Positions 4,741-64,000 of a DNA stretch of 64,000 nucleotides are shown piece by piece. The stretch comes from a virus, in the IMG/VR virus record IMGVR_UViG_3300042923_001459, positions 1 through 64,000 of that record. One strand, 5' to 3'. Each line of letters begins with the position of its first letter. Position 1 is the stretch's first letter. The notes under the pieces are model-generated. The model saw only the letters and a program-made list of their open reading frames with translations. It had not been told where the DNA came from and searched no databases. The position numbers and the translations under genes are program-made.

Positions 4741-4745
4741 CAAAT

Positions 4746-21595: not shown

Positions 21596-21622
21596 TTTTG
21601 ACACCTCCATTTTTCCTTTAGA

Positions 21623-27912: not shown

Positions 27913-27914
27913 AA

Positions 27915-28920: not shown

Positions 28921-29940
28921 TTATTTAGACGAGTTCTTTTTAATTAGTCTTTTATTCATTGTATTAGCAACGTTACTACTTTGCAATTCTTGTTTGATGC
29001 TTTCGAAAAACTGATCAACATTTTGTCCATATGTCTTGAGTGAATCTATTGAATAACCATCAAGAACAATCCTAATGTTTTGTTCTGCATCAATCATTTT
29101 TTGATAGTTATCTTTTTTAAATATTTTAGCTTCTGGCTCATTAAGATAAGCATTAAAATCATTATCATTTCCAAATATAGAGTCTAAAGATTTTAATGGA
29201 ATGTAATAGTTAACATTAGGACCATCAATTTTGATTCTAAGATAATTAGTGATTAATTTGTCAAAAGCAGCACCTTGAAAAACTTTTCTAGATACTTCGT
29301 CTAACGCTGCTTTAAATATAGTTAGTGAGGTATTTGAAACTAAACCATTATCATCAACAGTGACACCTTTTTCTCTTAAACCAGCTATTAATTCTGGAGT
29401 TTTGTTGTTTAAATTCTCTCTGTTATTTATGTTGTAGTAACTTTCATTCCATTCCGACTCTGTTGTTTCACCGGAGATAAGCTTTGAAACTTCCGGAAAT
29501 ACTCCCTTTTCATCTACCGCTCTTTTAAAAGTTTGCTGTAAATCATAATTTGCAAAATCAGCTCGAACTGGCATCCAATAACTGGAATTTTTCCCCCAAT
29601 TTTGATTGTAGTAATTTAAAAAATTCTTAAATAATACTGCAGCAGCCATGGTTTTTCTTTTTTCAGGTAAATTAAAATAAAGTTGATCATTAACATTAAC
29701 GATATTTACATCCAAAACTTTATCTTCTTCTTCATAACCTTGATTTTCTATAATATCAATTGTTTCTTCTTTACTCAAATCAGCAGAACTACAAGCTGAT
29801 TTTATATCCGTGATTTCTCCAACCAACCACATAACTGGTTCATTTGGAGATAGCTCATCGTCATAGACTCCAACCTTTAAATTACCACCGGAAAATTCTA
29901 CCTTACTTTGAAGCTTTGCAAGTCTCTTAAAAAACGACAT
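28921..29940 (-). CDS. hypothetical protein with divergent copy of the GNAT-like repeat
   Basis: LFKNFLNYYNQNW...PVRADFAN...FKRAVDEKGVFPE resembles the repeat core LYKKFGEIY...PVxxxFxNP...FRKAVxxGWxPE. Confidence 0.6.
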   Translation of the reverse strand: MSFFKRLAKLQSKVEFSGGNLKVGVYDDELSPNEPVMWLVGEITDIKSACSSADLSKEETIDIIENQGYEEEDKVLDVNIVNVNDQLYFNLPEKRKTMAAAVLFKNFLNYYNQNWGKNSSYWMPVRADFANYDLQQTFKRAVDEKGVFPEVSKLISGETTESEWNESYYNINNRENLNNKTPELIAGLREKGVTVDDNGLVSNTSLTIFKAALDEVSRKVFQGAAFDKLITNYLRIKIDGPNVNYYIPLKSLDSIFGNDNDFNAYLNEPEAKIFKKDNYQKMIDAEQNIRIVLDGYSIDSLKTYGQNVDQFFESIKQELQSSNVANTMNKRLIKKNSSK

Positions 29941-30037
29941 CCTTTGCACCACCTATTGTGTATTAAATAATAATCATACAAATGAATATACTCACCTGTA
30001 TCTAAAAACACTTCCCCTTGCGAGGAAGTATTTAGAT

Positions 30038-30378: not shown

Positions 30379-30687
30379 CTAGTCTTTTTTTTTAGCAACT
30401 AAAATACCTTTTGTTTTTAAAAAATCTTGAGCTGCCTTAAGAAGAGCTCCAAAATCAACATTGTCTCCCTCAATTGAACCTAATGCTCCTTCAGCAAGTG
30501 CATCTGCAAGAACATGAGTTACGGAGTTTGATGGAGAAATAGGTAATGCAGCAATTAACTGTTTAGCGAGCAAAAATGCATCAATCTTATCCTCATTTGG
30601 ATTTTGTGATGGGTTTGAAACCATCTTCTCAATTTTAACATTAATATAAGGATCTGAACCATTAGCAATTTTTTTTAATCTACTCAA
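30379..30687 (-). CDS. hypothetical head-region protein
   Basis: Starts MSRLKKIA after AGGAGGAG. Confidence 0.75.
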   Translation of the reverse strand: MSRLKKIANGSDPYINVKIEKMVSNPSQNPNEDKIDAFLLAKQLIAALPISPSNSVTHVLADALAEGALGSIEGDNVDFGALLKAAQDFLKTKGILVAKKKD

Positions 30688-31065: not shown

Positions 31066-32616
31066 TTAGAAAAATTCAACTGAATTAAAAATATTCTCCT
31101 TGATATAGTCAAACACACTTTTGTCTATTGATTTCAATTTATTTGGTTGATTTACATATGCTATAGTAGATTCAATTAAATAATCTTCTGCAGTATCTTG
31201 AGCCAGATAACTTATAAATGGATCTTGAAATACTGCAATACCAGTACCAATGTGTTTAGAATTTACTTTTTCAGTATATCTATTTTTAACCCATTCGGTA
31301 ACTGTAATCTTATCCCCAACAATTTTTCTAACAAGCATGTTCTCAATTAGTTGAGCATCGAAAGACATTGGAGAAACATAGTAAATGTTATCATAATCAA
31401 ATGACGCTATTTTAAAACGAAGTTTATCTTGTGCAATACAAGCTTCGTTATTAGCTTTAAACTCATTTTCATCTTTTGATAAATAGTGAGTCTTTACAGA
31501 TTGAAACCAATCATCTACATCTGTAATGTTATCGACAAATACAAAAGTTGTATCACTCATAAATTGCTTTGCATAAATTTGAAATTTCTTAATGAGCTTA
31601 ATAACTCTGTATTCCATCTCAATAGGTACATTTTTAAATTCAAAATTAGAAATCTTGAAATCAATATGCGTGTGTATTTCTTTATTGAGAAATGTTGATT
31701 TATGTTTCATGAATGGAGAAGTTTCTACGTGAGTATTAACTTCAGCCAATATACTTAAATCTGTAATTTGATTTCTATAGCTAATTACTGGGTCAATAGA
31801 TAATTTACAAAATGAATGATTAGTACCACCATTAACACCATAGTCGGATATTGAATCACTCAGGCTTGTAATTTTACCCGACCTAGCATTACAAATGGGA
31901 CAACACAGAGATTCATCTTCAGATATAAATACTACAGCATCAATACCAAGATTTTTAAACTCCTCAATTTGAGCTCTTCTAAATAACTGAATAATTTCTC
32001 TAGCTATTGCATCCATAAATTCATCAAATACTCCAGAAAAAGAATTCTCAACTACCTTAATAACTCCATTCATTTCTTCATCGGACAACTCTTGCTTACT
32101 ATATTCAAAATGAGTATAATCTTCATCACCATCTAAATTCCACTTTCCTTGGATTTTTTTAGAAGTTATTCTTTCAACTAGATAATTAACAATAGCATTA
32201 TCGAATTGAAGGGTGAGTTGTGTTAATTTATTTGACTTATAAAGATTAATGAATTGCTTGTCATTACTAGTAAAAGAGTATTTTTCACCATGATTTGGTT
32301 GTTGTTTTGCTAACTTTAGTTTCTTTCTAGTAATTAGTTTACCGCTATAGTACACACCTTCAGCATAGTAATCCATTAGAGAAATTATAGTTTGAACAAA
32401 ATCTCCCATTTCTTTTTCAATTATATTTCTCATAAAATTATTGCTAGATATAAGAGGTGCCGAAAGCACCTCTTTTTTAATTCTATCTTGAATGAACCCT
32501 AAAGTTTTTTCAAAACATTCTTTTGCTTCTTCATCGATAGACAAAATATATTTTTTAGCCAATTCACTCACCTGCATCTTCAACAACAATTCTCTCCAAC
32601 CTTCTTCAACAGCCAT
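31066..32616 (-). CDS. MuF/gp7-like head morphogenesis protein with C-terminal extension
   Basis: Adjacent to portal; CCPICNARSGK...HSFCK motif. Confidence 0.6.
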   Translation of the reverse strand: MAVEEGWRELLLKMQVSELAKKYILSIDEEAKECFEKTLGFIQDRIKKEVLSAPLISSNNFMRNIIEKEMGDFVQTIISLMDYYAEGVYYSGKLITRKKLKLAKQQPNHGEKYSFTSNDKQFINLYKSNKLTQLTLQFDNAIVNYLVERITSKKIQGKWNLDGDEDYTHFEYSKQELSDEEMNGVIKVVENSFSGVFDEFMDAIAREIIQLFRRAQIEEFKNLGIDAVVFISEDESLCCPICNARSGKITSLSDSISDYGVNGGTNHSFCKLSIDPVISYRNQITDLSILAEVNTHVETSPFMKHKSTFLNKEIHTHIDFKISNFEFKNVPIEMEYRVIKLIKKFQIYAKQFMSDTTFVFVDNITDVDDWFQSVKTHYLSKDENEFKANNEACIAQDKLRFKIASFDYDNIYYVSPMSFDAQLIENMLVRKIVGDKITVTEWVKNRYTEKVNSKHIGTGIAVFQDPFISYLAQDTAEDYLIESTIAYVNQPNKLKSIDKSVFDYIKENIFNSVEFF

Positions 32617-34598
32617 TAATTCTCCGAATTCTTCTGTTGAGTCTCCGCTTGACGTCTCACTTTTGTCGTTTGTGAAGAACGGGGATCCGTAGACGTCTGA
32701 GTTTCTTCTTGAACCCCGCTTTGTACTAAAAAATCTGATAAATTGTTAGAGGAATGCTTTGGTCCAACTGATGGAGGTGGAGCATTCTGTTGTGATTTAT
32801 CATTTGGTGAAGGAGCTTTCTCTGTTGGAGCAGGTCCCTTACCAGGGAAACCAAATGCTTGAGGGTTTGGTCCTTTATCACCACCAGGTACTGGTGCTCC
32901 TGGTTTTCCCGGAGGAGTTGGTGGTGTTGGTCCATGTCCCGGTGCTCCTGGTGGCCCACTTGCTGGAGGATGAACTCCTGGAGGTCCTGGAGGATGTGGA
33001 GGTCCACCTGTAGGAGCACTTGGTCCGCCTGCTGCTGGGCCGCCTCCTGGAACTTTAGGAGCGTTGGAATCAAATACTGTTCCACGTTCTTTTTCAAGAT
33101 TTTTCATTTCGGTTTCAGGATCAAGCTTAAGCATAGGTAAAATAGTATGCATAGATACAAGACCTTTTGATTGCAATTGTTGAACAAAGTTTAAAACGGA
33201 TTGGTTAGAAGTCAAATCTTGTTGAGACCAAGAAATTTCAGGAATGATTAGATTCATTTCTTTTTTACTTGCCAATCTTCTTTGTTCTTTTTCGCTTAAA
33301 TACTTACTAGAAATAGTTCCAGTAGCTGGTTTATAGAAACCTTGAATTTCAGCAATAGGCTTGTAAACTTTTCTTCTAATCCAAGATTCCATCTTTAAAC
33401 GATAAGAAGCATAACGCTTAGCTAATGCATCCATACCAACTTGAGCATTAGCATATGTTGGACCAGTACCATCAACAAGGGCTTGGTTAATCATAAGACC
33501 ATTCATAAGTTCTTTTTGAATAAAATCAAACTCTTGATTCAGAGGAAGAATTTTTCCTGAAGAACCAACATAATCTGTTTGAAGGGCATAGTGATAAACT
33601 AGAACGAAGTTAGGGTCTTCATCGGCCATCATTAAAGTATCACGTAAAGAATCTAAATCTTCTTGTTGTGGCATTGGCTCACCAGGTGCACCAACTTTAA
33701 AGATACGTAATGGTGTGATGTGTCTATTTGCAATAGCGTTTTGTGCTTCTCTCAATTTATCCTTATAGATAAGAGTTTTGAAACAACGCATCATGATAGG
33801 TGTTCCCCAAGTTTCATACTGAGCAGCCTTATGAGCAATATGAGAAACAAGACGATTATCTAATTTCATGTTTCTACCCATACGTACTTGACGCACGACA
33901 TCTTCAGGTAATTGTTGATAGATTGAAGCATAATCTCCACGCGGTCCAGCAGAAACAATTGCTTTAACTGTTTCATCGGGAATAAGTTCAATAACTGGAT
34001 CACCAGCTAGAATTGAAGCTTTAATATCTACGAAGTCTGGATTTAAGAGTACAAATCTTTCCCACATTCCATCACTTTCATTTAATTGACCAAATGGGAA
34101 AACGTCTCCAATCTTCCAATACTCTAGTCCAATATCTAAAAGTAGACTTATTAAATCTAAACGATCGAATGCCATGTGATCAAAGAAATCTTTAATTCCA
34201 TTATCTGAAACTACATGATTAAAATCTGAAATTGGAAATTCAGTGTGTAAATCTAATGACGTAGCAATAATTGGTTCAGTTCTATAGAAATGTCTGCACC
34301 ATTCATTACGCTCCCTTCTGTCTCTTGGGAGCATTATGTTCATAGCTTGGAATAAAGGGTGATAGAAGTTAGGATTACCCATCTTAATATTACCCATTGA
34401 CGGATTAGCCATTTTTCTTTGTATGTTCTTAGGCAAGCCATTTTTATCTTGTAAAAGCGCACTACGCATCATAGCTCCGCCGCCATGATTATTGTTCATG
34501 CCACTATTTCCTGTTGCGTTCATCGCAGCTTGTTTTGCCATTTTAAAATCTGATTCGGTAACATTTGTGATGATACGATCACTCACGCGGTACACCAC
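32616..34598 (-). CDS. portal protein
   Basis: WCRHFYRTEPIIATSLDLHTEFP, EYWKIGDVFP, LLNPD, WGTPIMMRCF; head-module position; Pro/Gly-rich tail. Confidence 0.8.
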   Translation of the reverse strand: MVYRVSDRIITNVTESDFKMAKQAAMNATGNSGMNNNHGGGAMMRSALLQDKNGLPKNIQRKMANPSMGNIKMGNPNFYHPLFQAMNIMLPRDRRERNEWCRHFYRTEPIIATSLDLHTEFPISDFNHVVSDNGIKDFFDHMAFDRLDLISLLLDIGLEYWKIGDVFPFGQLNESDGMWERFVLLNPDFVDIKASILAGDPVIELIPDETVKAIVSAGPRGDYASIYQQLPEDVVRQVRMGRNMKLDNRLVSHIAHKAAQYETWGTPIMMRCFKTLIYKDKLREAQNAIANRHITPLRIFKVGAPGEPMPQQEDLDSLRDTLMMADEDPNFVLVYHYALQTDYVGSSGKILPLNQEFDFIQKELMNGLMINQALVDGTGPTYANAQVGMDALAKRYASYRLKMESWIRRKVYKPIAEIQGFYKPATGTISSKYLSEKEQRRLASKKEMNLIIPEISWSQQDLTSNQSVLNFVQQLQSKGLVSMHTILPMLKLDPETEMKNLEKERGTVFDSNAPKVPGGGPAAGGPSAPTGGPPHPPGPPGVHPPASGPPGAPGHGPTPPTPPGKPGAPVPGGDKGPNPQAFGFPGKGPAPTEKAPSPNDKSQQNAPPPSVGPKHSSNNLSDFLVQSGVQEETQTSTDPRSSQTTKVRRQAETQQKNSEN

Positions 34599-35018: not shown

Positions 35019-35390
35019 TTAGAATAAGTCGTCATCTTCCTTTTCTTCCACTGGAGGAACATACGCTTTAATTGAAACTCCATCATCTTCAGCGGTAGTA
35101 ATGCCGCCTTCTTCTGTTTCAATTTCATAGTTATCTTTTCCATTTTCTGAAGCATAAGGACCATAGATGACAGTTCCGAAGATACCTCGTGTCTCTACTT
35201 GATCTCCAACCGCAAAATTAGCTTTCTTAGTTTTCTTTTTGGTTGTTTTGTTTTTCTTAACCAATCTGAAATCATCGAAGTACTCTTTTAAATCAGGGTC
35301 AAGGCCCCCGAACATCATAGCTTCTCTAGTAAAAGAATCCATGTCATCCATACTGCTATATGATTTTTTTAAACGTCCTTTATCTTTCAT
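35019..35390 (-). CDS. hypothetical protein (SH3/KOW-like C-terminal domain)
   Basis: GRLKKS start; FAVGDQVETRGIFGTVI. Confidence 0.65.
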   Translation of the reverse strand: MKDKGRLKKSYSSMDDMDSFTREAMMFGGLDPDLKEYFDDFRLVKKNKTTKKKTKKANFAVGDQVETRGIFGTVIYGPYASENGKDNYEIETEEGGITTAEDDGVSIKAYVPPVEEKEDDDLF

Positions 35391-35461
35391 TGCTCAATTA
35401 GCTCCTTAACCCTGAATTATTAATATATCTATATTATGCGGTTGGCCATATAAAAGTTTAA

Positions 35462-36595
35462 TTATTTTTTATGTTGAAAGATTTCTCCACTTCTCAAATC
35501 AACTGCGTATTCAGTACCACCTTTTGGTGAATACACGCCTTGGAAATGACCAGCAGTAGTGGATTTAACAAGTTCTTCACCTGTTTCTGGACAAATACCT
35601 TGTTGGAAGATTTTTTCAGCTACACCGCTAAGTTTTTCAACTTTATCTTCTCCACATGTGCATTCTCCATTTTCACAACCACAATCCTCGCAACAATCTT
35701 CGTCTTTATCTTTTTCACCAGGAACTTCAACTTTAGGTTCAAGCTCAGGTTTAGGTTCTTCTTCAGCAGGTGCTTCAACCGCTGGAGTTTCTGTTGCTAC
35801 TGGAGCATCATTAGTTACAGCTTGTTGAACTTCAGAAGGAGCGTGTTGTGATAACTCAACGCGACCAGCTGGAGAAGTAATGTCAACAGCTTTTTCTTTA
35901 GCGAGTTCTTGAGCTGATTGGTTAGCTGAATCAGTAAAGTGTTGAACTTCATCTTGAATAGCTTGAGTAGCACCTGGATCATCAACAAATTGTGGAACAC
36001 GAGCATATTGTTGTTCAATGCTAGATAGACGTTTCTCTAAAGTAGCAATAGTAGCTTCCAATTCTTCAAAGCCAGAAGCAATTACGTTCATAACTTCTTC
36101 ACCCTCAAGAACTTCATCTTCTTCGCCAACTGCAGCTTCTTTAGTTTCATTAACTGGTGGAACATCACAAGCTTCTTCTTCAACACTTGCAGTAATGTCT
36201 TCATCTTCACCCTCAAGGATTTCATCTTCTTCACCTAAGGAGAGAGCAAGTTTATCCAATTCGTTTGCTAAATCATCTTCTTTAACTTCTTCAGCAGCAA
36301 CAATCTCATTAGCATTAAGTTTGTGATCTACTTCTTCAACAGATTTAACATCTGGAATAGAAGTAACAGTGTTACCAAATTCATTTATAACGTTTGCGCC
36401 TTTTTCATCAAAAGCTACTCTAAAAGTTTCATCTTTCCATACAATTTTATCAAGGTCACCAACATTAATTTCAGCTACTACTTCTTCTTTAGTCTCCTCT
36501 TCTTTTGTGTCGACTTCAGCCTTTTTTGCTAATCCATTAATAAATTCTTCCATCCAAGCAGATAAACCTCTTTTTGAAACATGTTTGTTTTCCAT
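35462..36595 (-). CDS. acidic putative internal head protein
   Basis: Very Glu/Asp-rich 377 aa with Cys cluster; AGGAG SD. Confidence 0.65.
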   Translation of the reverse strand: MENKHVSKRGLSAWMEEFINGLAKKAEVDTKEEETKEEVVAEINVGDLDKIVWKDETFRVAFDEKGANVINEFGNTVTSIPDVKSVEEVDHKLNANEIVAAEEVKEDDLANELDKLALSLGEEDEILEGEDEDITASVEEEACDVPPVNETKEAAVGEEDEVLEGEEVMNVIASGFEELEATIATLEKRLSSIEQQYARVPQFVDDPGATQAIQDEVQHFTDSANQSAQELAKEKAVDITSPAGRVELSQHAPSEVQQAVTNDAPVATETPAVEAPAEEEPKPELEPKVEVPGEKDKDEDCCEDCGCENGECTCGEDKVEKLSGVAEKIFQQGICPETGEELVKSTTAGHFQGVYSPKGGTEYAVDLRSGEIFQHKK

Positions 36596-36747: not shown

Positions 36748-36984
36748 TTATTTTTTGAGTCTACTTCTCTTATTAGAGCTCATTAATTGATGTTCAGCAT
36801 AGTCAATTGGTTGTTCAAATAACCATTGCTGCGAAATTGAAGGTCCATATGTTTTTTTTGTTATCTCATCTTTATTATCAACTATTTCTTCTGGATTTCC
36901 AAAAAGAACGGGTACTGCTGAATAACCAGTACCCATACCGCCGGATTCATCGGCAATTTTTTTAAGTCTTGTTTTAGTTTCCAC
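36748..36984 (-). CDS. hypothetical protein
   Basis: TRLKKIA at N-terminus and SRLKK at C-terminus. Confidence 0.65.
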   Translation of the reverse strand: METKTRLKKIADESGGMGTGYSAVPVLFGNPEEIVDNKDEITKKTYGPSISQQWLFEQPIDYAEHQLMSSNKRSRLKK

Positions 36985-37003: not shown

Positions 37004-37417
37004 TTACGAAAAACCTAAGAAGCTAGGTTTCTTGAGTAGTAAATTATGATAATAGTCATTTTTACCTTTGTTACGTGGATTAGATACAAATTGCTCTAAT
37101 TGCTTTTGAAGTACTGGTATTTGTTTTGCAAACTTCTCAGCACGCGATACTCCTTTAAAAGCAGTTAATAAATCTGAATACATTCTAAATGCAGATTTAA
37201 CATCTGGACCATCATAAAAAGAACTAGTGTTTGTATCATAATTAATATAAACTTGATACCATGGGTTCCAGTTTACAACTCTTGCGGATAGACCAACAAT
37301 GTCTCCACTTCCAAGAATTTCCGTATCAAGATCCATAGCGGGTGATGCTATCTTAGTCATCGTGTCTATATTGATTTTTGCCTCTTCTGATTTTTTCAAT
37401 TTTCTTAAACGACTCAC
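37004..37417 (-). CDS. hypothetical protein
   Basis: GTG start giving MSRLRKLKKS; TKIAS. Confidence 0.65.
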   Translation of the reverse strand: MSRLRKLKKSEEAKINIDTMTKIASPAMDLDTEILGSGDIVGLSARVVNWNPWYQVYINYDTNTSSFYDGPDVKSAFRMYSDLLTAFKGVSRAEKFAKQIPVLQKQLEQFVSNPRNKGKNDYYHNLLLKKPSFLGFS

Positions 37418-37571
37418 GTGTATCACCTTGGCCTTTAACTGACTTTAAACTGCCGTCGTCACAGGATTCGCAGATTGTAATAATGGTTTTATCATCTAAC
37501 CATACCTTTTTAATCTCTTCTTCCGGGGTATAATTATTACAATCTGGCATACCGCACCTGAAAATTTTCAT
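37353..37571 (-). CDS. small Zn-ribbon protein
   Basis: CGMPDC...CESC; GGGGG SD. Confidence 0.55.
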   Translation of the reverse strand: MKIFRCGMPDCNNYTPEEEIKKVWLDDKTIITICESCDDGSLKSVKGQGDTRESFKKIEKIRRGKNQYRHDD

Positions 37572-43959: not shown

Positions 43960-45180
43960 CTATTTTGGTGTAATTTGTGAAAACTGCCAGTTGTCCGGTA
44001 CAAAATACTGTCTTGCAACTCTTTGTATATCTTCTTTTGTTACTGCTTCGATACCACTGAGATAATCGTCAGGTTCAGTGGATGTTTCATCTATAATAGC
44101 ATTTCCGATGTAACTATTGATTGATGATGGTTTCTCAAGATTGATAATGTGAGAACCGCGAGTATATGCTATAGCGCGTTTCAATTCAATATCACTTACA
44201 GGTTCATTTCTTAAACGTTCGAATTCTTCAATAACAGTATCCTTAACTGCTTCAATCTTGCTTGCATCTAAACCAGTATAACCAAGAATCATTCCAGAAT
44301 CGCGAAGCGCATAATAACTAACACGAACTGTGTAAGCTAAACCACGTTTTTCTCTAATAAGTTGATATAATCTTGAAGAAGAACTGCCGCCTAAAATAAC
44401 ACATGCAATATCCATAGCGTAATAATCAGAACTATTAATCGATGGACCAAATAAACCCCAAGCAAAGTGAGCTTGTTCAATGCTTCTTTCAATCTCTATC
44501 GTGTTTGAATCTAAAATATCAGGTTCGAATTCTTCTTTTTTAAATTCATTAGGATTTTCTTGAAAGTCTTTTGTGTATTCTTCCATAAATTTATTGATAG
44601 CTTCATCATCTATCTTGCCAGTTGCTACAACAAATATATTGTTAGGTTGGTAAAATTTATTCTTGAAATCAATTAAATCTTGTCTTGATATCTCAGCAAC
44701 TTGTTTTGGTGTTCCACCAACTAATTGTCTGCTTGGAAAACTCTTATGCATTGCTGTAAAAAGCATGTCTGTAACATGTGAAGAAGTATCATCTGAGTAC
44801 ATCTTGAGTTCTTCTTGAATCACCGTTCGTTCCAATTCGACTTCTTCTTCAGGAATAGTAGAATGAAATATGATGTCAGATATTACATCTGCTGCTGTTT
44901 TCCAATTTTCCGCTGGCACTGTAGCAAAGTACCTAGTGTGTTGAAAACTTGTCTCAGCATTAATGTAACCGCCTATTGATTCAATTTCTTCCATAATTTG
45001 CTGTGAATTGCGTGAATCCGTTCCTTTAAATACCATGTGTTCAATGAAATGAGCGATACCAAATCTATCTGTTTCATCGTATGAACCAACTTTTACATAA
45101 ATACTAAATGTCATTGTTTTTGCAGACTCGATTTTTTCTGTATAAACATCGAGACCATTTGGAAGTGTTTTCTTTTGCAA
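43960..45180 (-). CDS. M16 family zinc peptidase
   Basis: GIAHFIEHMVFKGT, INAETS, ERTVIQEE, SSRLYQLIREKRGLAY. Confidence 0.92.
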   Translation of the reverse strand: MQKKTLPNGLDVYTEKIESAKTMTFSIYVKVGSYDETDRFGIAHFIEHMVFKGTDSRNSQQIMEEIESIGGYINAETSFQHTRYFATVPAENWKTAADVISDIIFHSTIPEEEVELERTVIQEELKMYSDDTSSHVTDMLFTAMHKSFPSRQLVGGTPKQVAEISRQDLIDFKNKFYQPNNIFVVATGKIDDEAINKFMEEYTKDFQENPNEFKKEEFEPDILDSNTIEIERSIEQAHFAWGLFGPSINSSDYYAMDIACVILGGSSSSRLYQLIREKRGLAYTVRVSYYALRDSGMILGYTGLDASKIEAVKDTVIEEFERLRNEPVSDIELKRAIAYTRGSHIINLEKPSSINSYIGNAIIDETSTEPDDYLSGIEAVTKEDIQRVARQYFVPDNWQFSQITPK

Positions 45181-46451: not shown

Positions 46452-47378
46452 TTATTTTATGTTATTGAAAGAGAATAATCCATATCCAAATTCATTATCT
46501 CTACCACTTATTCCTTCATCTTTACTGTTAGCTGCAAGGAATGATAGAACATCATGCGGTTTCATCATTTTACCTGTTTTTTGTAGAGAATCAGCTTGAA
46601 TTAATGCAACAGCACCGGCAATATGAGGACAAGCCATAGAGGTTCCAGATAGACGAGCATATTTTCCATTAGGAAAAGTACTAACCACGTCAACCCCGGC
46701 AGCAGAAACGTCAACCTCTACACTAGTACTAGAAAAAGAACCCTTGTGTTCTATTGAGTCAACGGCTGCAACTGAAATAACTTCATCAAAACTTGCAGGA
46801 TAACCAACTGTATCTTGACCAGCACCTTCATTACCAGCAGCAGCTACCAATACAATTCCAGCATCATATGCTTTTTTAATTGCATTATACAATGACGGGA
46901 TAAAACCTGGAGCTCCGAGACTCATAGAGACAACATGAATTCCATTTTCAATACACCATTCAAGACCTTGAATAATCCATTCTAATGTACCTTGACCACT
47001 GTCACTAAGTACCTTTACAGCATATAACTCAACTTCAGGTGCAACTCCTACAATACCAAGATAGTTTATTGAAGCGCCAATTACTCCAGCACAGTGAGTA
47101 CCATGACCTTGACGATCCATGTAATCATTGATGTCTGAAGTGGTAAAATTAACTCCACCCTTGAATCTGTCTTTTAGATCTTGATGATTGTAATCAATGC
47201 CAGTATCAAGTACAGCAACTTTAATTCCAGCGCCCTTTGTTTTTTCCCATTCTTTTTGAGCGCCAATTAGACGTACACCATATTCAACATTATCAATTGC
47301 ATTAGTTGATGCAGTCTTTAAAAATCCTTCAGCTTCAATAATTTCTAAAACCTTAAAACCAGAAACTTTAAATTCCAT
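46452..47378 (-). CDS. subtilisin-family (S8) serine protease, no signal peptide
   Basis: VLDTG, HGTHCAG, AAAGN, SGTSMACPH. Confidence 0.92.
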   Translation of the reverse strand: MEFKVSGFKVLEIIEAEGFLKTASTNAIDNVEYGVRLIGAQKEWEKTKGAGIKVAVLDTGIDYNHQDLKDRFKGGVNFTTSDINDYMDRQGHGTHCAGVIGASINYLGIVGVAPEVELYAVKVLSDSGQGTLEWIIQGLEWCIENGIHVVSMSLGAPGFIPSLYNAIKKAYDAGIVLVAAAGNEGAGQDTVGYPASFDEVISVAAVDSIEHKGSFSSTSVEVDVSAAGVDVVSTFPNGKYARLSGTSMACPHIAGAVALIQADSLQKTGKMMKPHDVLSFLAANSKDEGISGRDNEFGYGLFSFNNIK

Positions 47379-47511: not shown

Positions 47512-49179
47512 TTAAACTCTATACATTCTTCCAGTTGTAGGTCTTGGCATTCTACTTTTTCCACCAAATTCAGCTGCAAAATTAGCTAACGCATCAGAAC
47601 AACAAGCATCATCATGTCCACCATTTGGAGCTTCAATTCTTTTATTAACTGTTTGACGAACTTCCATCTCTAAATCTTTCCATTCACCAATCATTTTATG
47701 ATAAAAACCACCTAAATCTCTATTGCCAGTTTTATTAATTACATCTTTAGAAGGATATTTGAACCTTCCAACTTCTATATCATGCTTTATTTTTGCGAAC
47801 ATAATATTTTTCATATTCATACCAGAACGAGTATAGGAATCAGAAGCATTAAATGTGATACCTTCTAATTGTCTTAACCCATCTTGATCTCTAAGAATAT
47901 CAACAATTGGTCTACCTACACCAGTAAAATCAGCAAAAATTGACTCTACTGGAAATTTAGGTCTTGGTCCGCCAAACAATTTTAAAATTTCTAATCTTTG
48001 AGTATTAAAGCTCTCACCATGCATCTCCATAGCAAATACCTTTTCTCTTAATCCATTTGGTTGAACTCTCAATACTGAAATATGAGTATAATCGGCACCT
48101 GATGCGGCAGAACCTGCAAAGTCAATACCTGCAACGTATTTTTCTCCATAGTTGCCACTTTCTTGCCATTCGTGTTCTCCAGAGATCAATGTATCCCATT
48201 CCGATGTACTTAGGAATTGGCCAGCTCCATCAACAAATTCAAGCATATATTGTGTCTTAAAATCCTCTACTGACATTTCTCCTTCAGTCCAAACTTCTGG
48301 ATTTTTAGGGAAATATTGTTGCTTTAAAGGCTTAGGCATCAAACGAAGAACGTAAGCAGAGTATGGTCTCATTTCTTCTGGATTTTTGTAATCTGGAAGA
48401 TAAGTAGCATCCAAAGCCCATAATTGAGGACACTCTGTCCAGTCTTTTCTGATTTGAACAAATCCTTTTGGATTTTTAATTGAATCATATGCAATACCAG
48501 GTTGAAATGATTCCCAGAAATGATTACGAAATTTAGGTGTACCAATTTTAATAATTTTAGCATTTGTTGCACCACCCATCGGAACAATACGCTCAGATAC
48601 GGTGTAATTGGAAATTTTTTGTGCTTCATCTAATACAATTATATCAAATGTCAAACCCTCAATATTTGATTGGTCGGAACCAGAAACTGCCATTACATAA
48701 GAGCCATTGCTAAGTTCAATTTTACCTTTTGTACATTTTACAAGTTTATTGTTGAGTTTTTCTTCATTCATTTGAAAGAAGATAGCTGTACGTCCAACAT
48801 TAAGTTCTGCTTGCTGAATACGAGGGGTAAAGATACCAATTCTCATGTTTGGATAATTATCTAATAGGTAACCGGTAAATGATGCAATTGATTCTGTTTT
48901 ACCAGCTTGTCGAGCCATGAGGGCTGCAACAGAACGAATTTTAGGATTACATACAGCTCTAATTAACTCTACTTGATTAGCATGTAATTTCTGTTTATTT
49001 GGTGGCAAATGAGCTCTAAGAACTCTATGACAATATTCAACTGGATCCATTTTTGTAAGCATTTTTTTAAATATATAGCCACCTAAATCTTCACCATGAA
49101 TTTTATTTTGTTTCATAGCATTAAGTTGACCTTGAATAGCATTTGTATCACTTTTAAGTTTCGATATGTCGAAGAACAA
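47512..49179 (-). CDS. terminase large subunit
   Basis: Walker A ARQAGKT, Walker B IIVLDEAQ, IGTP, nuclease GIDFA and HDD. Confidence 0.9.
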   Translation of the reverse strand: MFFDISKLKSDTNAIQGQLNAMKQNKIHGEDLGGYIFKKMLTKMDPVEYCHRVLRAHLPPNKQKLHANQVELIRAVCNPKIRSVAALMARQAGKTESIASFTGYLLDNYPNMRIGIFTPRIQQAELNVGRTAIFFQMNEEKLNNKLVKCTKGKIELSNGSYVMAVSGSDQSNIEGLTFDIIVLDEAQKISNYTVSERIVPMGGATNAKIIKIGTPKFRNHFWESFQPGIAYDSIKNPKGFVQIRKDWTECPQLWALDATYLPDYKNPEEMRPYSAYVLRLMPKPLKQQYFPKNPEVWTEGEMSVEDFKTQYMLEFVDGAGQFLSTSEWDTLISGEHEWQESGNYGEKYVAGIDFAGSAASGADYTHISVLRVQPNGLREKVFAMEMHGESFNTQRLEILKLFGGPRPKFPVESIFADFTGVGRPIVDILRDQDGLRQLEGITFNASDSYTRSGMNMKNIMFAKIKHDIEVGRFKYPSKDVINKTGNRDLGGFYHKMIGEWKDLEMEVRQTVNKRIEAPNGGHDDACCSDALANFAAEFGGKSRMPRPTTGRMYRV

Positions 49180-57366: not shown

Positions 57367-57732
57367 TTATTTTTTTATATCCATAATTTTATCAATCATT
57401 TCTTCAGAAACTGCATCAGTTATGTCAAGCTCAATCTCAACACCATTTTGCACAAATAGTTGTACAGCAATTGTTACGCAATTAGAACAAATAAGGGGTT
57501 CATTTTTTTCACTTAAAGAAACTACTGGTTTTTCGTTAGTTCCAATAGTTCCACAAAATGAACACGAATGAAATGAACTTTGCAAACCTTCAAGTCCAGC
57601 AGTTCCTCCATATAGTGGTAAAATTTGTCCATCTTCAAATTCAACAAAAGTCATTTGTCCATCTTGTTTGATGTCCTTTACTGGTTGTTTCATTAATATT
57701 GTAAGTTCTTTTATTCTTTCCTCATCTAACAT
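57367..57732 (-). CDS. ClpX C4-type zinc-finger-like protein
   Basis: CSFCG-x(16)-ICSNCV. Confidence 0.65.
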   Translation of the reverse strand: MLDEERIKELTILMKQPVKDIKQDGQMTFVEFEDGQILPLYGGTAGLEGLQSSFHSCSFCGTIGTNEKPVVSLSEKNEPLICSNCVTIAVQLFVQNGVEIELDITDAVSEEMIDKIMDIKK

Positions 57733-57733
57733 A

Positions 57734-58003
57734 TCACATCTTCCTTCCAAGTATAGAATTTAACATTGAATCAACTTGGTTAGAACCATTTGAGTTCTTT
57801 AAAATGGTCTGTGTTACTGTTAATTCATTAAGCACTCTAGAAAGTTGAAGCATAATTGAACTAGCTTCTATTAGATTTTCAAACTTATAGTTCTTGTCAT
57901 TTCTATTATCTTCCATAGAACACTTACGAGACAACAATTCTATTTGTTTTACTATGGCATTTATAGCTAAATCAATTTGATCTTGCTGCGACTCCAAACT
58001 CAT
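57734..58003 (-). CDS. hypothetical protein
   Basis: ORF. Confidence 0.65.
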   Translation of the reverse strand: MSLESQQDQIDLAINAIVKQIELLSRKCSMEDNRNDKNYKFENLIEASSIMLQLSRVLNELTVTQTILKNSNGSNQVDSMLNSILGRKM

Positions 58004-58791: not shown

Positions 58792-59088
58792 TTACTTCTT
58801 TTTCTTTTGTTTTTCTAATTCTTTAATTTGATCATCTGTCAGAGTCTTAAGTTGTTTCGTATCATCACCATCTATATCGGACTGATGTTTAATGATTACT
58901 TTGTAACCTGCAGCGCCAAGCAATTGCTTTGCTAATTGTAGTGAAATTTCTGCGTCTTCATTTTTCAAACGAGAAATCCAAGACTTAGAAACATCAGCTT
59001 TTTTGGCAAATTGAGTAACAGTAATACCGTTTTGATAGCAATAAGTTCTTACGATTCTTATAATATCTTTTGTGGTAGGTTGAATCAT
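58792..59088 (-). CDS. XRE-family HTH regulator
   Basis: ITVTQFAKKADVSKSWISRL...ISLQLAKQL. Confidence 0.85.
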   Translation of the reverse strand: MIQPTTKDIIRIVRTYCYQNGITVTQFAKKADVSKSWISRLKNEDAEISLQLAKQLLGAAGYKVIIKHQSDIDGDDTKQLKTLTDDQIKELEKQKKKK

Positions 59089-59187
59089 GAACTACAACTC
59101 CTTTTTTTATATAGATAAAATAATTGATTTGCTTAATAATAACAAAAAAAATCAAAAACCCTACACAACGTAGGGTTATACATATTG

Positions 59188-61743
59188 TTATACAACTGAT
59201 TTGTTCTTCTGCCTAAAGTCTGTTAACTTCGGTAAGAGCTCGTTATACCATTTTTCCTCATCTTGATGATTATAATCTCTCTTAGTATTGTTGAGCGTAA
59301 TTTCGGGGAACCAACCCATAGCAACAGCCTTGTTAAATGTATATTCTGCTACTGGGTTTATGAATGTTCTACCAAGTCTCCAATTTTGATATTGAGAATT
59401 GTATTCTTCTGAAAATGTTTTATATAAGAGCATAGCAACTCCATTTTTTCTATATTGCTCTTGTACTTCAACATAATTAATGTAGATGTATTCATGTTCA
59501 GGATAGATTTCATACTTCATATCTCCAAGCATTTCTCCATCTCTAAAGATCTCAATTTTACGTCCTCTATTATTAATTTCTTTTTTCTGAACATCAATTG
59601 GACCAACTGCAACTTCGGATGCAAATTTACGCAATCTGTAATCATTACCTTTAGCCCAATATTCAGGACCTTTATACTGTTCTGGCAACTTATTACGTAA
59701 GTCATTCCAAACTTCGTCTGGGTTTGTTTTAAGGCTTTTATTATATCGATCTCTCTTCACATACTTATCATCTATTGAAGTTTCATTTATCCAACCTAAA
59801 CTTACAGCTTTTCTAAATGCATATTCAGCTATTGGATTAATATAGTATCTAGAAACCGGCCAATCACTAAAGTTAGAATTGTAGATTTCACCAAACTTTT
59901 TGTAAAGTAGTTGTCCAACACCATAACTTCTATATTCTTCCTTTACTTGGACTTCATCTACGTGAATAATATTGCTGCCAGGTGGTAAATCCCTAAGACT
60001 TCTATTGTTTTCGTGAATATATTTAGGGTTTTCAACATTGTAAAAAGCTGAAAAATACATATTTCCAATATTAATACCATTAGATAATTTAGCGTTTATT
60101 GAATAGTCAACTTGTTTTTCGGCACCAACATAATCTCCATCTTCTTCTGACTCAGTATAAGATAGTACAATGTTTCTCATATCAATTTCTGACAAATCAG
60201 CTAATTTAAATAGTTTTTTCAATCTAGAACTACCTCTATACATTGGAGGAAGTTTCTTTCTCAAATCCTTCCAAAGCGTTTTATCTTTTTTATCATAATT
60301 GCGCTTTAATTTATCATCATTTAAAGCCCATCCAGAAATCCACCCTAATGAAATAGCTTTACGATAAGAATATTCAGCTATAGGGTTATGAAAATCTACA
60401 GAAACTGGGAGACGATCAAATTGTTGTTGATAAATTTCACCAAATTTCTGAAGAAGTAATTGACCAATACCAAGGCTTTGATATTGTTCAGTAACTTTAA
60501 TTAAATCGATATGAACTTTATCTCTTCCTGCATAGGCACTATTTGTATCATAAACGTAAGCTGTAAATCTTATGCTTCCCACTTCTTCACCATTAAGTTG
60601 TGCATAAACCATGTGGGTGTCCATTGTTAAGCCATTGTCATAAGTTGAACTACCAATAGAACCTCCATCTTCAAGTATTATGCCAGACCTAATATCGGTC
60701 ACGCTTAGATCTGAAGCTAGTTTACGTAAATCTTTTTTCATACTAGCCTCCGGCCCTCTAACATGTTCTGGAAGTTTTTGTCTTAAATCATTCCAAAGCG
60801 CTTTATTTTTTGTACTATAGTCACGAATTATCTTTTCTTCAGAAAGAGCCATATCTGGAACCCAGCCAAGAGATACTGCTTTTCTAAAGGAATATTCAGC
60901 AACAGGATTTACAAATTGTCTACCAACTGCCCAACCATTAAATTGTTCAGTGTACATCTCACCAAATTTTTTGTAAAGCATTTGGCCTACGCCAGCTCCT
61001 TCAAAATATTGTTGCACATACAAAAACGAAACATATAATTCTGGTTCAGTATAATCTTTAGCTTCTTCTTTTGGAACATACTTTGAAAAATCCAAATAAC
61101 CAATTTGACTTCCAGCGTACATAGCGGAAATTTCATAACTAGATCTAAGTGTTTGTCCCCAGTCTTTTTCTTCACTAGGACCAGAAACTTCAAATTGAAT
61201 ACCTTGTCGTAAGTCAATTTTTTCATCATCACTTATGGCAATTTTTTTCAATCTTGAAAATCTACTAGCATGTAAATTTTCTGGTAATTTTTGTTTTAAG
61301 TCATTCCATTGTTGCTCTTTTTTATCATCATAACTTCTAGTTGTTCTCTCTGGAGTATAAGCTTGATTTGGTACCCAACCTTGATCTACTGCTTTTTTAA
61401 AAGAATATTCAGCAATGGGACTCTCAAAGTGTCTTTCAACTTCCCAGTCCATAAAGTTTTGGCTATACACTTCACCAAATTTTTTGTAAAGCATACCACT
61501 AATTCCAGTTCCACGATACTCAGATTCAACTTTGATATAAGCAAGGTATAGAATATCTTCCTCGTTGCCATTTTCATCTAGTTGCGAAACTTGATTGAAA
61601 TCTAAAGCGCCAATTTCGCCTCCATTGTACATAGCTTCAATTCTATGCATAGTCATGTAGTATCCATCTTCAGGATCACTATCACTACCAACATTAGGTG
61701 AGTAATCAATTCTAACTTTTCTAATGTCAAACTGATCAGACAT
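59188..61743 (-). CDS. polyprotein of five tandem GNAT-like domains
   Basis: Five repeats with motif A (YRGTGIS, FEGAGVG, YQSLGIG, YRSYGVG, YRKNGVA) followed by L[YL]xxF.E.Y...[NS]P[IV]AEY.[FY].KA[VI]..GW. Confidence 0.85.
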   Translation of the reverse strand: MSDQFDIRKVRIDYSPNVGSDSDPEDGYYMTMHRIEAMYNGGEIGALDFNQVSQLDENGNEEDILYLAYIKVESEYRGTGISGMLYKKFGEVYSQNFMDWEVERHFESPIAEYSFKKAVDQGWVPNQAYTPERTTRSYDDKKEQQWNDLKQKLPENLHASRFSRLKKIAISDDEKIDLRQGIQFEVSGPSEEKDWGQTLRSSYEISAMYAGSQIGYLDFSKYVPKEEAKDYTEPELYVSFLYVQQYFEGAGVGQMLYKKFGEMYTEQFNGWAVGRQFVNPVAEYSFRKAVSLGWVPDMALSEEKIIRDYSTKNKALWNDLRQKLPEHVRGPEASMKKDLRKLASDLSVTDIRSGIILEDGGSIGSSTYDNGLTMDTHMVYAQLNGEEVGSIRFTAYVYDTNSAYAGRDKVHIDLIKVTEQYQSLGIGQLLLQKFGEIYQQQFDRLPVSVDFHNPIAEYSYRKAISLGWISGWALNDDKLKRNYDKKDKTLWKDLRKKLPPMYRGSSRLKKLFKLADLSEIDMRNIVLSYTESEEDGDYVGAEKQVDYSINAKLSNGINIGNMYFSAFYNVENPKYIHENNRSLRDLPPGSNIIHVDEVQVKEEYRSYGVGQLLYKKFGEIYNSNFSDWPVSRYYINPIAEYAFRKAVSLGWINETSIDDKYVKRDRYNKSLKTNPDEVWNDLRNKLPEQYKGPEYWAKGNDYRLRKFASEVAVGPIDVQKKEINNRGRKIEIFRDGEMLGDMKYEIYPEHEYIYINYVEVQEQYRKNGVAMLLYKTFSEEYNSQYQNWRLGRTFINPVAEYTFNKAVAMGWFPEITLNNTKRDYNHQDEEKWYNELLPKLTDFRQKNKSVV

Positions 61744-61762
61744 TTATTACACCCTCTTTTGA

Positions 61763-62251
61763 TTAAGAATATTTAAGTTTTCTTTTTAGTCTTTTAGCAC
61801 CTCTATATTGTTCAGGCACCTTTTCTCTTAAATCTTGCCATTGTTGTTTTTGTTGATCGTCGTAATTTCTATTTACGTTGTTTTCATCTAAGGCTGAAGA
61901 TGGTATCAATCCACCAGAAATTAAATTTCTAAATGCTAATTCAAATTCTGGATCGTGAAAGTTTAAAATTACCTTCCAACCCGTGTAATTAGCTTCAAAT
62001 TCCTTACCAAATTCATCCATTAACATTTCTTCTAAATCATAATCTCTGTATTTTTCACTAATAAGACATTCATCTACGGATAAAACACCTTTAGATGCTT
62101 CTGTAAATTCAACGTGACCAACTTCTTTGCCGTTATAGATAGACGAAATTCTATGATCTTTTGAACCAAAAGTACCTTGATGATCAAAATAAATTTGAGC
62201 TTGAAACTGTTCTATGTTTGACGGTGCTGCAACCTTTCTAAGTTTACTCAT
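61763..62251 (-). CDS. single degenerate GNAT-like repeat
   Basis: MSKLRKVAA start; YRDYDLE replaces motif A; WQDLREKVPEQYRG. Confidence 0.8.
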   Translation of the reverse strand: MSKLRKVAAPSNIEQFQAQIYFDHQGTFGSKDHRISSIYNGKEVGHVEFTEASKGVLSVDECLISEKYRDYDLEEMLMDEFGKEFEANYTGWKVILNFHDPEFELAFRNLISGGLIPSSALDENNVNRNYDDQQKQQWQDLREKVPEQYRGAKRLKRKLKYS

Positions 62252-64000
62252 TTTTATCACCCTTATCCCTATAATCTTTTCTTTCAATACTTTTCTTAAA
62301 CTTCTTTTTCTCTTTTGCTGGTAACCAATCAAATAAATCTTTAGCAATTTGTTTTTCATGTTCATCATATTGACGCGCTATTAAATCATCATTATATGCA
62401 GTTTCAGGGATATTTCCCTTATCGACTTCTTCTTTAAATACATATTCTGCTATAGGGTTTGCAAAAACTTGAGCAACTGGCCAATCCATAAAATCTTGCT
62501 TGTAAATTTCTCCAAACTTCTCATATAATTTCTTGCCAATTCCATAACCTCTGTACTCACTATTCACAAGAACGTTGTTTACATATAACATTTCATCATA
62601 ATGCTTGTTTTCAAGAGAAGTATGAACATCTTTAGCTGTTACATTATGAAATTCTGAAAAGTGCATGTAACCAATTTGAGAACCATAATAATCACAATAA
62701 ATTTCGTGATCAACTACATGATCTGCTCCATTCTTGTTTTCTTCTCTTGGGATATTTTGAACATCAATTTCTATGTGATTCCATTCAATGTCTGGTTTAT
62801 CATCTTTTTTTTCTTCACCATCATATGAGTCAGAAACATAATTAACTGCATTTTCTTTTTTGAGCAATCTTTTTGTCAATTTAGCCCAAGTCTCAGGGCC
62901 CTTTAAATTGTCTGGAAGTTTATTTCTTAAATCGGTTATTGTTTGTGAATCATAATTTTTATAATCCCTAGTGATCATTGGTTCAGTTAATGCTGATTCT
63001 GGCACAAAACCTTTTGAAACTGAATTTCTAAAAGCGTATTCAGCTACTGGATTCATAAAATGCCTTTCAACAGGCCAACCATTAAACTTTTCACTATAAA
63101 TTTCTCCAAATTTTTTGTAAATTTCATACGCTAGACCTTGATTTTGATATTTTGGATCAACCTCAAGTTGAATAATTTCAATATATTTTCCATTAGTATC
63201 AGCAGTGAAGGCTAAGAATCCAGCGTGATCACCATTTACAAGCAAAGTAATGTCATTTGTTGAACTAGTTCCCCAATCTTCAAAGAAATAGGTTGTTTCA
63301 ATATTTTGTTCCTCTGATTTTCTAATCATACGAAGTCTTTTAATTTTTGACCATGTTTCAGGACCTTGAACATGTTCTGGTAACTTATTGCGTAAATCTT
63401 TTGCTAGATTTCTTTCAGTATCGGTATATACTCTTGCAATGTCATCTTCTTGTAATGCTTCTTGGGGAACCCAACCTAATCCAACAGCTTTTCTAAATGA
63501 ATATTCTGCTATAGGGTTAATAAAAAAACGTTTAACTTTTGTGCCCATATATTTTTGTGAGTAAATATTTCCAAATTCTTTATACAATAATTGCCCAATT
63601 CCTAAATTTCGATATTTATCATCAACGTCTACTGAATCAATTTCAATATGATTATCGCTTCCGACTATTTTAAAGTCCATTTCTCCAACTTTTTGTCCAT
63701 TCAATTTAGCGGTAATGTAATTATGATAATTCCAATTGGAGAATTCAAATTGTATATTTCTTAAATCAACTTTTTCTTCTTCAGCTGTTTTTAGAAGTTT
63801 AATTTTTTTCAGTCTTGATTGAATTTCTGGACCACGATATTGTTCTGGCAATTTTTGTCTTAAATCTTGCCAAAGTTGTGTTCTATTATCGTTTTCATCT
63901 AGTGGTTTATTGTATCCTCTATTGATATATTGTTCAGTTAACGCATTTTCACTAATTAATCCATTTGCAACCGCTTTTCTAAATGAATATTCTGCGACTG
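62244..64000 (-). CDS. polyprotein of at least 4 tandem GNAT-like domains, partial (start beyond window)
   Basis: Frame open to 64000 (VAEYSFRKAVANG...); motif A YRNLGIG, YQNQGLA, YRGYGIG. Confidence 0.85.
   Translation of the reverse strand, partial: VAEYSFRKAVANGLISENALTEQYINRGYNKPLDENDNRTQLWQDLRQKLPEQYRGPEIQSRLKKIKLLKTAEEEKVDLRNIQFEFSNWNYHNYITAKLNGQKVGEMDFKIVGSDNHIEIDSVDVDDKYRNLGIGQLLYKEFGNIYSQKYMGTKVKRFFINPIAEYSFRKAVGLGWVPQEALQEDDIARVYTDTERNLAKDLRNKLPEHVQGPETWSKIKRLRMIRKSEEQNIETTYFFEDWGTSSTNDITLLVNGDHAGFLAFTADTNGKYIEIIQLEVDPKYQNQGLAYEIYKKFGEIYSEKFNGWPVERHFMNPVAEYAFRNSVSKGFVPESALTEPMITRDYKNYDSQTITDLRNKLPDNLKGPETWAKLTKRLLKKENAVNYVSDSYDGEEKKDDKPDIEWNHIEIDVQNIPREENKNGADHVVDHEIYCDYYGSQIGYMHFSEFHNVTAKDVHTSLENKHYDEMLYVNNVLVNSEYRGYGIGKKLYEKFGEIYKQDFMDWPVAQVFANPIAEYVFKEEVDKGNIPETAYNDDLIARQYDEHEKQIAKDLFDWLPAKEKKKFKKSIERKDYRDKGDKNE

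Follow-up and report, generated by a model that had tools for sequence, protein, structure and literature searches.

Ten tandem GNAT domains in a phage-G-like virus are joined by a basic peptide that also marks head-module proteins

What does a phage do with ten GNAT domains strung along three neighbouring genes, and what are the short basic peptides that join them? Both questions are raised by the viral contig IMGVR_UViG_3300042923_001459 of the IMG/VR database (108,591 bp, CheckV completeness 22%), whose first 64 kb (64,000 nucleotides) are the stretch analysed here and called the window. The contig has a GC content of about 30-35% and nearly all of its genes lie on the minus strand. Three co-oriented minus-strand genes, named A, B and C in the following, carry 5 + 1 + 4 units of about 160 residues, exactly ten according to the listing of open reading frames (ORFs) and a profile scan. 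The profile built from the units detected 4 + 1 + 5 domains on the contig and no further ones. An earlier note, made from the letters of the window, had described three adjacent genes with 5 + 1 + at least 4 units. This layout was confirmed, and the count is now exact because gene C was traced past the end of the window, beyond which it extends for 406 nt. The basic peptide, here called the tag, is very probably a functional signal common to head-assembly proteins and enzyme modules. The genes and their units are:

62244-64406, minus strand: gene C, 720 residues, four GNAT units (profile domains E 1e-56 to 1e-62); window part 62244-64000
63819-64406, minus strand: unit C1
63348-63818, minus strand: unit C2
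62883-63347, minus strand: unit C3
62247-62882, minus strand: unit C4
61763-62251, minus strand: gene B, 162 residues, single unit (B1), counted from the ATG that gives M-S-K-L-R-K-V
59188-61743, minus strand: gene A, 851 residues, five GNAT units
61258-61743, minus strand: unit A1
60739-61257, minus strand: unit A2
60229-60738, minus strand: unit A3
59641-60228, minus strand: unit A4
59191-59640, minus strand: unit A5

The units are genuine GNAT domains. They align across about 170 columns at 27-39% identity, and Pfam Acetyltransf_1 matches gene A with 59 bits and gene C with 71 bits at a cut-off of 20.7. Acetyltransf_7, _10 and _CG match the units likewise and the PHROGs are acetyltransferases; gene B alone gave no Pfam match. 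Structure prediction, which the earlier note had proposed as a check, was run on unit A2, where it found the GNAT fold, and on the pair A2-A3. The A2 model, made from 40 family sequences, reached a predicted local distance difference test (pLDDT) value of 92.9 and a predicted template modelling (pTM) score of 0.85. Its Foldseek matches are all GNATs, as is every one of 139 VIA matches (chains) at a Z score of at least 8, the top structural match being 5f46_B (Z 9.7, root-mean-square deviation 4.3 Å, 113 residues aligned). The GNAT core (beta4, motif A, alpha3, beta5, alpha4, beta6) is present in the model. The N-terminal arm consists of beta strands only, without the usual alpha1-alpha2, a feature shared with minimal GNATs such as YjdJ (5i0c, Z 8.4), and a C-terminal helix stands in place of beta7. 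The fold assigned in the earlier note is upheld by Pfam, the A2 model and the GNAT-only PDB matches, and the unit motifs quoted there are present in the unit alignment.

Motif A needs a finer description, having been ascribed to every unit. Its strict form (Q/R-x-x-G-x-G/A) is found in seven of the ten units and a near-canonical one in A1, where it ends in S, and in A2, where it starts with E. In B1 it is lost (R-D-Y-D-L-E), and the family-invariant A-E-Y is altered there as well. These changes recur in the orthologues P0019, P0029 and P0013 (unit 2); therefore the B type is a conserved and probably non-catalytic member of the family. Since B1 is without motif A, not all ten units are likely to be enzymes, and the earlier description of ten acetyltransferases stands for the domains but not for ten activities. 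Acetyl transfer is for the units a predicted activity. The module types differ in their N-terminal halves, which the earlier note had called variable with good reason, so that their substrates probably differ.

The tag is found at the following positions of the array:

63783-63818, minus strand: tag before C2, S-R-L-K-K-I-K-L-L-K-T-A
63315-63347, minus strand: tag before C3, K-I-K-R-L-R-M-I-R-K-S
62853-62882, minus strand: tag before C4, K-L-T-K-R-L-L-K-K-E
62225-62251, minus strand: N-terminal tag of gene B, M-S-K-L-R-K-V-A-A
61237-61257, minus strand: tag before A2, S-R-L-K-K-I-A (pLDDT <60 in models)
60712-60732, minus strand: tag before A3, D-L-R-K-L-A-S (pLDDT <50, residues 171-189 of the two-unit model)
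60199-60228, minus strand: tag before A4, S-R-L-K-K-L-F-K-L-A
59617-59637, minus strand: tag before A5, R-L-R-K-F-A-S

Its consensus is [S/K/D]-R/x-L-[K/R]-K-hydrophobic-A, followed by S/D/E/A, and the linker coordinates given earlier proved correct to within 3 nt. Stand-alone GNAT homologues begin with the tag. In multi-unit homologues the junctions are tag variants, in most of which the hydrophobic residue and A are followed by S, D, E or A, and both linkers of the three-unit protein gp678 of Bacillus phage G are variants of this kind. In the A2-A3 model (shallow alignment, 13 rows) both units are folded with a pLDDT of 80-90, the N-terminal tag and the linker (residues 171-189) stay below 50, and the pTM is 0.47; so no fixed packing between the units is predicted. 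The linkers are predicted to be disordered.

The same tag is carried by unrelated proteins of the head module. This module is marked by PHROGs matches to the major head protein (20747-21610), the head maturation protease (27915-28814), the portal (32616-34598) and the large terminase (47512-49179). A scan of the contig ORFs found three copies of the exact R-L-K-K-I-A of the A1-A2 joint outside the GNAT genes, compared with 0.003 expected, and all three lie in the head module. Close variants stand at the N-terminus of the proteins 37004-37426, 35019-35390 and 11654-12118. Altogether, N-terminal tags occur on six non-GNAT proteins of the contig (0.31 expected). The head-module proteins with the exact tag, and one with a variant, are:

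27103-27924, minus strand: scaffold-like gene directly downstream of the prohead protease, R-L-K-K-I-A at residues 76-81, tag-like N-terminus
30379-30687, minus strand: head-module protein of 102 residues, starts M-S-R-L-K-K-I-A
36748-36984, minus strand: head-module protein of 78 residues, R-L-K-K-I-A at residues 6-11, tag-like C-terminus
37004-37426, minus strand: head-module protein, N-terminal tag S-R-L-R-K-L-K-K...A

Once the tags are removed, no similarity can be detected among the tagged proteins or between them and the GNAT units, and Pfam returned nothing for the small tagged head-module proteins. The basic K-x-A peptides, which the earlier note had singled out between the units, are a real signal and not filler, as the same tag stands on these unrelated proteins.

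The tag is also kept in two relatives. In phage G the product gp20, which is encoded right after the protease gp19 and is the orthologue of the scaffold-like protein, starts seven residues ahead of the tag. Other orthologues of tagged window proteins, gp9, gp10, gp13 and gp17, begin with it, gp17 being the orthologue of 30379-30687. On a third phage contig, G002 (156 kb), the protease is 68% identical. This contig holds orthologues of five of the six N-terminally tagged non-GNAT proteins of the window and of the scaffold-like protein, all of them starting with the tag; for a seventh query, 28921-29952, no orthologue was found in G002. In the phage G genome, the tag lies within the first 15 residues of 18 out of 692 ORFs, compared with 0.55 expected and a maximum of 4 in 200 shuffles.

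In several of these tagged phage G ORFs the tag is directly followed by L-Y-H-G-T. These ORFs are members of a family with about ten paralogues and the motif (L/F)-(Y/F)-H-G-T, and most of the paralogues have at their start the basic tag known from the GNAT units. The family profile matches DarT1 (8baq, E 1.9e-5) and Tpt1 (E 2.9e-3), the family falls among DarT, PARP and Arr clusters in the ESM Atlas, and sub-threshold Pfam matches to PARP and the diphtheria toxin C domain were obtained. These paralogues are called ADP-ribosyltransferase-like (ART-like) here. They are located in phage G (G001) as follows, the last line giving a further tagged ORF:

178671-179219, minus strand: ART-like paralogue
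163172-163870, minus strand: ART-like paralogue
245985-246467, plus strand: ART-like paralogue
81739-82587, plus strand: ART-like paralogue
35181-36314, plus strand: ART-like paralogue
446697-447356, plus strand: ART-like paralogue
401788-402312, plus strand: ART-like paralogue
402412-402885, plus strand: ART-like paralogue
420403-420834, plus strand: ART-like paralogue
70899-71849, plus strand: ART-like paralogue
388147-388674: tagged ORF, a GNAT

Some tagged proteins show further features. In the scaffold-like protein 27103-27924, about 70 residues lie between the tag-like N-terminus and the exact tag, and this stretch has no counterpart in gp20 or in the G002 orthologue; either the protein carries a propeptide with two tags or translation in fact begins at the internal Met, residue 71. 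The tagged 154-residue protein 11654-12118 (minus strand), whose G002 orthologue is tagged too, gave a weak match to ParB_N (E 0.014) that serves as a lead only. ParB-like nuclease domains are typical of packaged polyvalent proteins. Tag-like basic tails of the R-L-K type end gene B (61763-61800, minus strand), the 78-residue head protein (36748-36770, minus strand) and a protein of 343 residues (28921-28950, minus strand). Such tails seem to be either remnants of linkers interrupted by a stop codon or tags that also function at a C-terminus.

How the array came about was addressed by its family. A profile search among 1.84 billion representative proteins gave 124 matches at E 1e-3 or better, about 40 of them full-length. 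The number of units per protein is one (about 25 proteins), two (P0008-14), three (P0002-7, including gp678 of phage G) or five (gene A only). Judged by these matches, the family is a small one, confined to phage-G-like megaphages. A megablast search of cultured phages with the locus gave no hit, and at the protein level phage G, with gp678, is the only cultured phage that matches. There, gp678 is followed by the helix-turn-helix (HTH) gene gp679, in the same order as gene A and the HTH gene 58792-59088; in G002 a pair with 3 + 1 units is followed by the same HTH gene.

A maximum likelihood tree of 71 units was calculated by a quick search with support from the Shimodaira-Hasegawa-like approximate likelihood-ratio test (SH-aLRT). 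In this tree no two of the ten window units are sisters. Nine of the ten fall together with units from other phages, in most cases with good support, and C2 is unresolved. The best examples are:

A3: groups with unit 3 of P0002 and unit 2 of P0008 (support 100)
A4: groups with unit 2 of P0002 (support 99)
A5: groups with unit 3 of gp678 and the single-unit proteins P0028 and P0030 (support 97)
C4: groups with the single-unit protein P0016 (support 96) and with unit 1 of gp678 (99)
B1: groups with the single-unit protein P0019 (support 88)

The fusion order differs between relatives: P0002 reads A1-A4-A3, P0003 A1-A2-A5 and P0009 C1-C4. In gp678, unit 1 is of the C4 type, unit 3 of the A5 type, and unit 2 is nearest to the B-type clade. 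As no window units are sisters in the tree, the array consists of ten old paralogue types, found elsewhere alone or in other fusion orders, and not of recent duplicates. Unit types are freely fused or split between phages, so the modules seem to act independently. Free fusion and fission together with flexible joints are what one expects if the units work separately, cut or uncut.

Some relatives are larger or of mixed composition. The three-unit homologue P0005 (747 residues) has an ART-like domain after a tag, between GNAT units, and in P0061 (2909 residues) GNAT and ART-like domains are mixed in one homologous polyprotein. P0041, P0044, P0055, P0062 and P0072 are metagenomic giants of 989-2422 residues with up to six GNAT domains. 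In P0041, P0044, P0055 and P0062, four to six GNAT domains are joined by L-L-Q-H-F-A, in general form (S/A)-L-L-Q-(H/F/Y)-F-A, which is the Prp-type leader or cleavage motif of Firmicutes phages and ribosomal protein L27. The P0041-type giants are a separate family, in which a motif of a known cleavage type links GNAT domains independently of the window array; they had no match in viral contigs or cultured phages.

The surroundings of the array give hints as to when it is expressed. The start codon of gene B overlaps the stop codon of gene C (ATGAGTAA), and a ribosome site lies 7 nt before the start of gene A. On the 5' side of gene C there is a terminator (hairpin plus T run), a promoter-like site and a GGAGG ribosome site. 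Downstream, the following element closes the array and is followed by the HTH gene:

59157-59177, minus strand: intrinsic-terminator-like hairpin and T run, directly 3' of gene A

Genes C, B and A thus seem to be transcribed together. The minus strand of the contig has 62 near-identical strong sigma-A-type promoters, composed of AAAAACAGTTTACA, a spacer and TGTGATATAAT, then TCTATAAGGTAAT. Sixty of them stand at 68-108 kb (67999-108300) before small genes, almost one per gene, and this region looks like an early-gene block; the other two are at 4.7 and 7.5 kb (window positions 4741 and 7469). None of the 62 falls into the block at 8-67 kb with the morphogenesis genes and the GNAT operon, which suggests that the operon is not early. 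A search for a common late promoter upstream of gene C and the portal gene yielded no more than a weak resemblance, A-T-A-G-A-A-T. A stand-alone ClpX-type zinc-finger protein (57367-57750, minus strand; PHROG matches only) is encoded 1.4 kb downstream of the array and is syntenic in G002.

Which function would join head proteins and enzyme modules under one tag? The tag may be an 'address and/or cut here' signal in head assembly. It would load the GNAT polyproteins into the procapsid, a phage peptidase (27915-28814 or 43960-45180) would cut at the tags and free single enzymes, and these would enter the next host along with the DNA and acetylate host targets. The interpretation in the earlier note, in which packaged polyproteins would be cut into single acetyltransferases, finds partial and indirect support in the tag common to unrelated head-module proteins and ART-like enzymes of three related phages, in the predicted disorder of the linkers and in the free shuffling of unit types. 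We give an even chance to the units being tag-marked cargo modules that are loaded and/or cut by a phage peptidase, either the prohead protease or the M16 enzyme. That the tag serves head-linked loading or processing is slightly favoured by us, the cutting of the arrays into single units falls a little short of even, and delivery of the units by the virion is put forward tentatively. Doubtful is a more extensive version, in which a clade-wide presequence-like tag is a combined load-and-cut signal, read by the HK97-lineage prohead protease or an M16 enzyme resembling the mitochondrial processing peptidase (MPP), and packs a diversified capsid arsenal.

Two peptidases of the contig are candidates for cutting at the tag:

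27915-28814, minus strand: prohead protease (PHROG head maturation protease, E 1.8e-17)
43960-45180, minus strand: M16 (insulinase/MPP family) zinc peptidase with intact H-x-x-E-H (H-F-I-E-H)

Both are kept in all three phages. The family alignment of the prohead protease shows invariant K-T-A and K-I-A at the N-terminus, right before P-K-E, the one hint as to what the enzyme may cut. Further features of this family are a conserved four-Cys/His cluster (C-R-C ... C-S-x-C ... F-C-x-H) and, at the C-terminus, an invariant L-P-W-S; the family has no Pfam match. The M16 peptidase is encoded near the terminase gene and corresponds to gp2 of phage G, right after terL; in the window it lies, together with an S8 subtilase (46452-47378, minus strand), between the terminase and portal genes. 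The subtilase is unlikely to be the cutter, not being found at the syntenic place in phage G, where no genome-wide search was made. MPP follows a loose R-3 rule, xRx(Y/x)↓(S/A/x)x, the arrow marking the cut (PMC3117770). Tags with R-K-hydrophobic↓A-S fit this rule and others have K. A host-type Prp was set aside as unlikely: the tag lacks Q-F-F, and Prp (PF04327) is encoded neither on the contig nor in phage G. A Sec signal peptide was rejected, since polar or acidic residues and no hydrophobic core follow the tag.

By analogy, T4-like capsid targeting is the most economical reading. In T4 the ADP-ribosyltransferase Alt is packed by means of the capsid-targeting sequence (CTS), which the prohead protease gp21 then removes. 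This sequence likewise stands on the unrelated internal proteins IPI-III and encapsidates them into the scaffolding core (PMC3012670). As with the CTS, one short N-terminal tag is found here on unrelated proteins, among them scaffold-like and head proteins, and the candidate cargo includes host-modifying enzymes. In contrast to the CTS, the tag is basic (R-L-K-K-hydrophobic-A), does not end in L/I-x-E, belongs to the HK97-type head of the phage G lineage and occurs also internally, between ten homologous modules; it is known here from sequence.

Several observations weigh against the cargo interpretation. Gene A starts without a tag, and in G002, a more distant relative, the GNAT linkers are reduced to K-V-A or K-V-S. 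The operon stands outside the head module, with regulators and DNA enzymes as neighbours; terL is about 10 kb away, and the distance to the portal, protease and scaffold-like genes is 25-30 kb. Other roles are conceivable for a peptide that is basic and disordered. The ORF starts in the tag statistics were called mechanically, and the tree comes from a quick search, its branches being supported by SH-aLRT alone. The tagged genes of phage G are scattered through its genome and their functions are mostly not known, and the phage G literature examined, which did not include the key proteomics study, makes no mention of gp678, GNAT or ART.

An alternative, which we consider unlikely, is that the products stay uncut and act as cytoplasmic multi-domain acetyltransferases in mid or late infection. 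The basic peptide would then be a spacer or a binding element for nucleic acid, the ribosome or an adaptor such as ClpX, copied with each module, and the head-module proteins would carry it for an unrelated reason. Multi-GNAT proteins can work uncut, as one of the fold matches, the tandem GNAT 2wpw, illustrates, and the untagged start of gene A fits such products. An adaptor role is favoured by the ClpX-type zinc finger close to the array, and phage G encodes ClpX and ClpP (PMC12484599). However, the relatives have the unit types alone as well as combined in any number and order, so that no fixed multi-domain architecture is needed, and no confident packing between units is predicted. A spacer would also leave unexplained the N-terminal bias of the tag in phage G (18 against 0.55) and its place on the scaffold-like protein of three phages.

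Alternatively, the tag may be a pro-sequence that an MPP-like M16 peptidase removes in the cytoplasm, activating or releasing potentially toxic enzymes at the right time without any packaging. This explanation appears quite improbable to us. An intact M16 peptidase beside terL in all three phages speaks for it, as do the types of cargo, GNAT and ART-like, which are host-modifying enzymes. The tag itself is basic, without acidic residues, and its R-K-hydrophobic before A-S agrees with the MPP rule (PMC3117770). On the other hand, this rule is loose and many tags have K instead of R, M16B peptidases are common, general peptide-degrading enzymes, and the same tag on scaffold-like and small head-module proteins ties it to head assembly.

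The idea that recent tandem duplication or faulty assembly produced the array, which would then have no special function, might be suggested by a repeated architecture on a metagenomic contig but can practically be dismissed: the units are only 27-39% identical, nine of ten are closer to units of other phages than to those within the array (C2 unresolved), all frames are open with ribosome sites, and synteny with gp678-gp679 of phage G and with G002 is kept; recent duplication is rejected by the unit tree and the unit identity.

Coming back to tag-marked cargo, its principle has precedents. The statement of the earlier note that no equivalent has been described does not hold, as the T4 CTS (PMC3012670) and the polyvalent proteins (PMC5512222) are precedents of principle. 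In polyvalent proteins, ART and GNAT effector domains are joined, predicted to be injected with the DNA and processed into single units (PMC5512222; PMC7824862). The relatives P0005 and P0061, which mix GNAT and ART-like domains, resemble these multi-domain effectors. Polyvalent proteins, however, join unlike domains and usually have their own zincin-like MPTase, whereas the window array is homotypic: a Pfam search of genes A-C found GNAT units and no other effector domain, and no peptidase family in A, B or C at E up to 1. Also unlike polyvalent proteins, the joints carry a tag shared with head proteins.

Short cleaved leaders are known as well. The capsid and scaffold proteins of the staphylococcal phage 80alpha and ribosomal protein L27 have a Prp-cleaved leader, L-x-L-Q-x-F↓A (PMC5744158). 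Like the tag, this short leader stands on non-homologous phage structural proteins; at its cut site a hydrophobic residue is followed by A-S. In contrast, the window tag is without the Q-F-F core, L-x-L-Q-x-F↓A is absent from the window tags, and the cutting enzyme of 80alpha is that of the host. The prohead protease of the giant phages phiKZ and SPN3US has the motif S/A/G-x-E. Many head and ejection proteins of these phages are cut by it at a short motif (PMC5694885, PMC10052503). They differ from the window in lineage and motif, and no tandem enzyme arrays have been described there.

Tandem GNATs and single phage GNATs complete the comparison. Enzymes with tandem GNAT domains include MshD and Eis. 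Such proteins (PDB 2wpw/2wpx) have several GNAT folds per chain, as in the window, but pack two or three domains into one active unit, whereas the window has up to five beads, predicted to be flexibly joined, of types that occur also alone. Rac, a GNAT of phiKMV-like phages, acetylates the alpha subunit of host RNA polymerase (cited in PMC7824862). As far as that citation goes, Rac is like the array a phage GNAT in host takeover and unlike it a single early protein with neither tag nor array. The principle is thus already known, and the differences lie in the phage G lineage, the basic tag, the homotypic array of ten GNAT types without a built-in peptidase, and the mosaic fusions.

To our knowledge, phage G is the only cultivated megaphage. 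It has about 670 genes, most of them without known function. If the tag predicts processed or packed proteins, about 20 phage G genes would be annotated at once. If the cargo reading is true, the tag would point to injected host-modifying enzymes, namely acetyltransferases and ADP-ribosyltransferase-like proteins. In the more extensive version, the arsenal packed into the capsid would comprise nuclease-like proteins, about ten ADP-ribosyltransferase-like paralogues and no fewer than ten types of GNAT. Cutting at the tags would also explain the variable length of the arrays: the products would be cut apart anyway, so selection would not act on the fusing or splitting of tagged modules, which would cost nothing. 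As the CTS does in T4, the tag could serve to load foreign proteins into a very large capsid.

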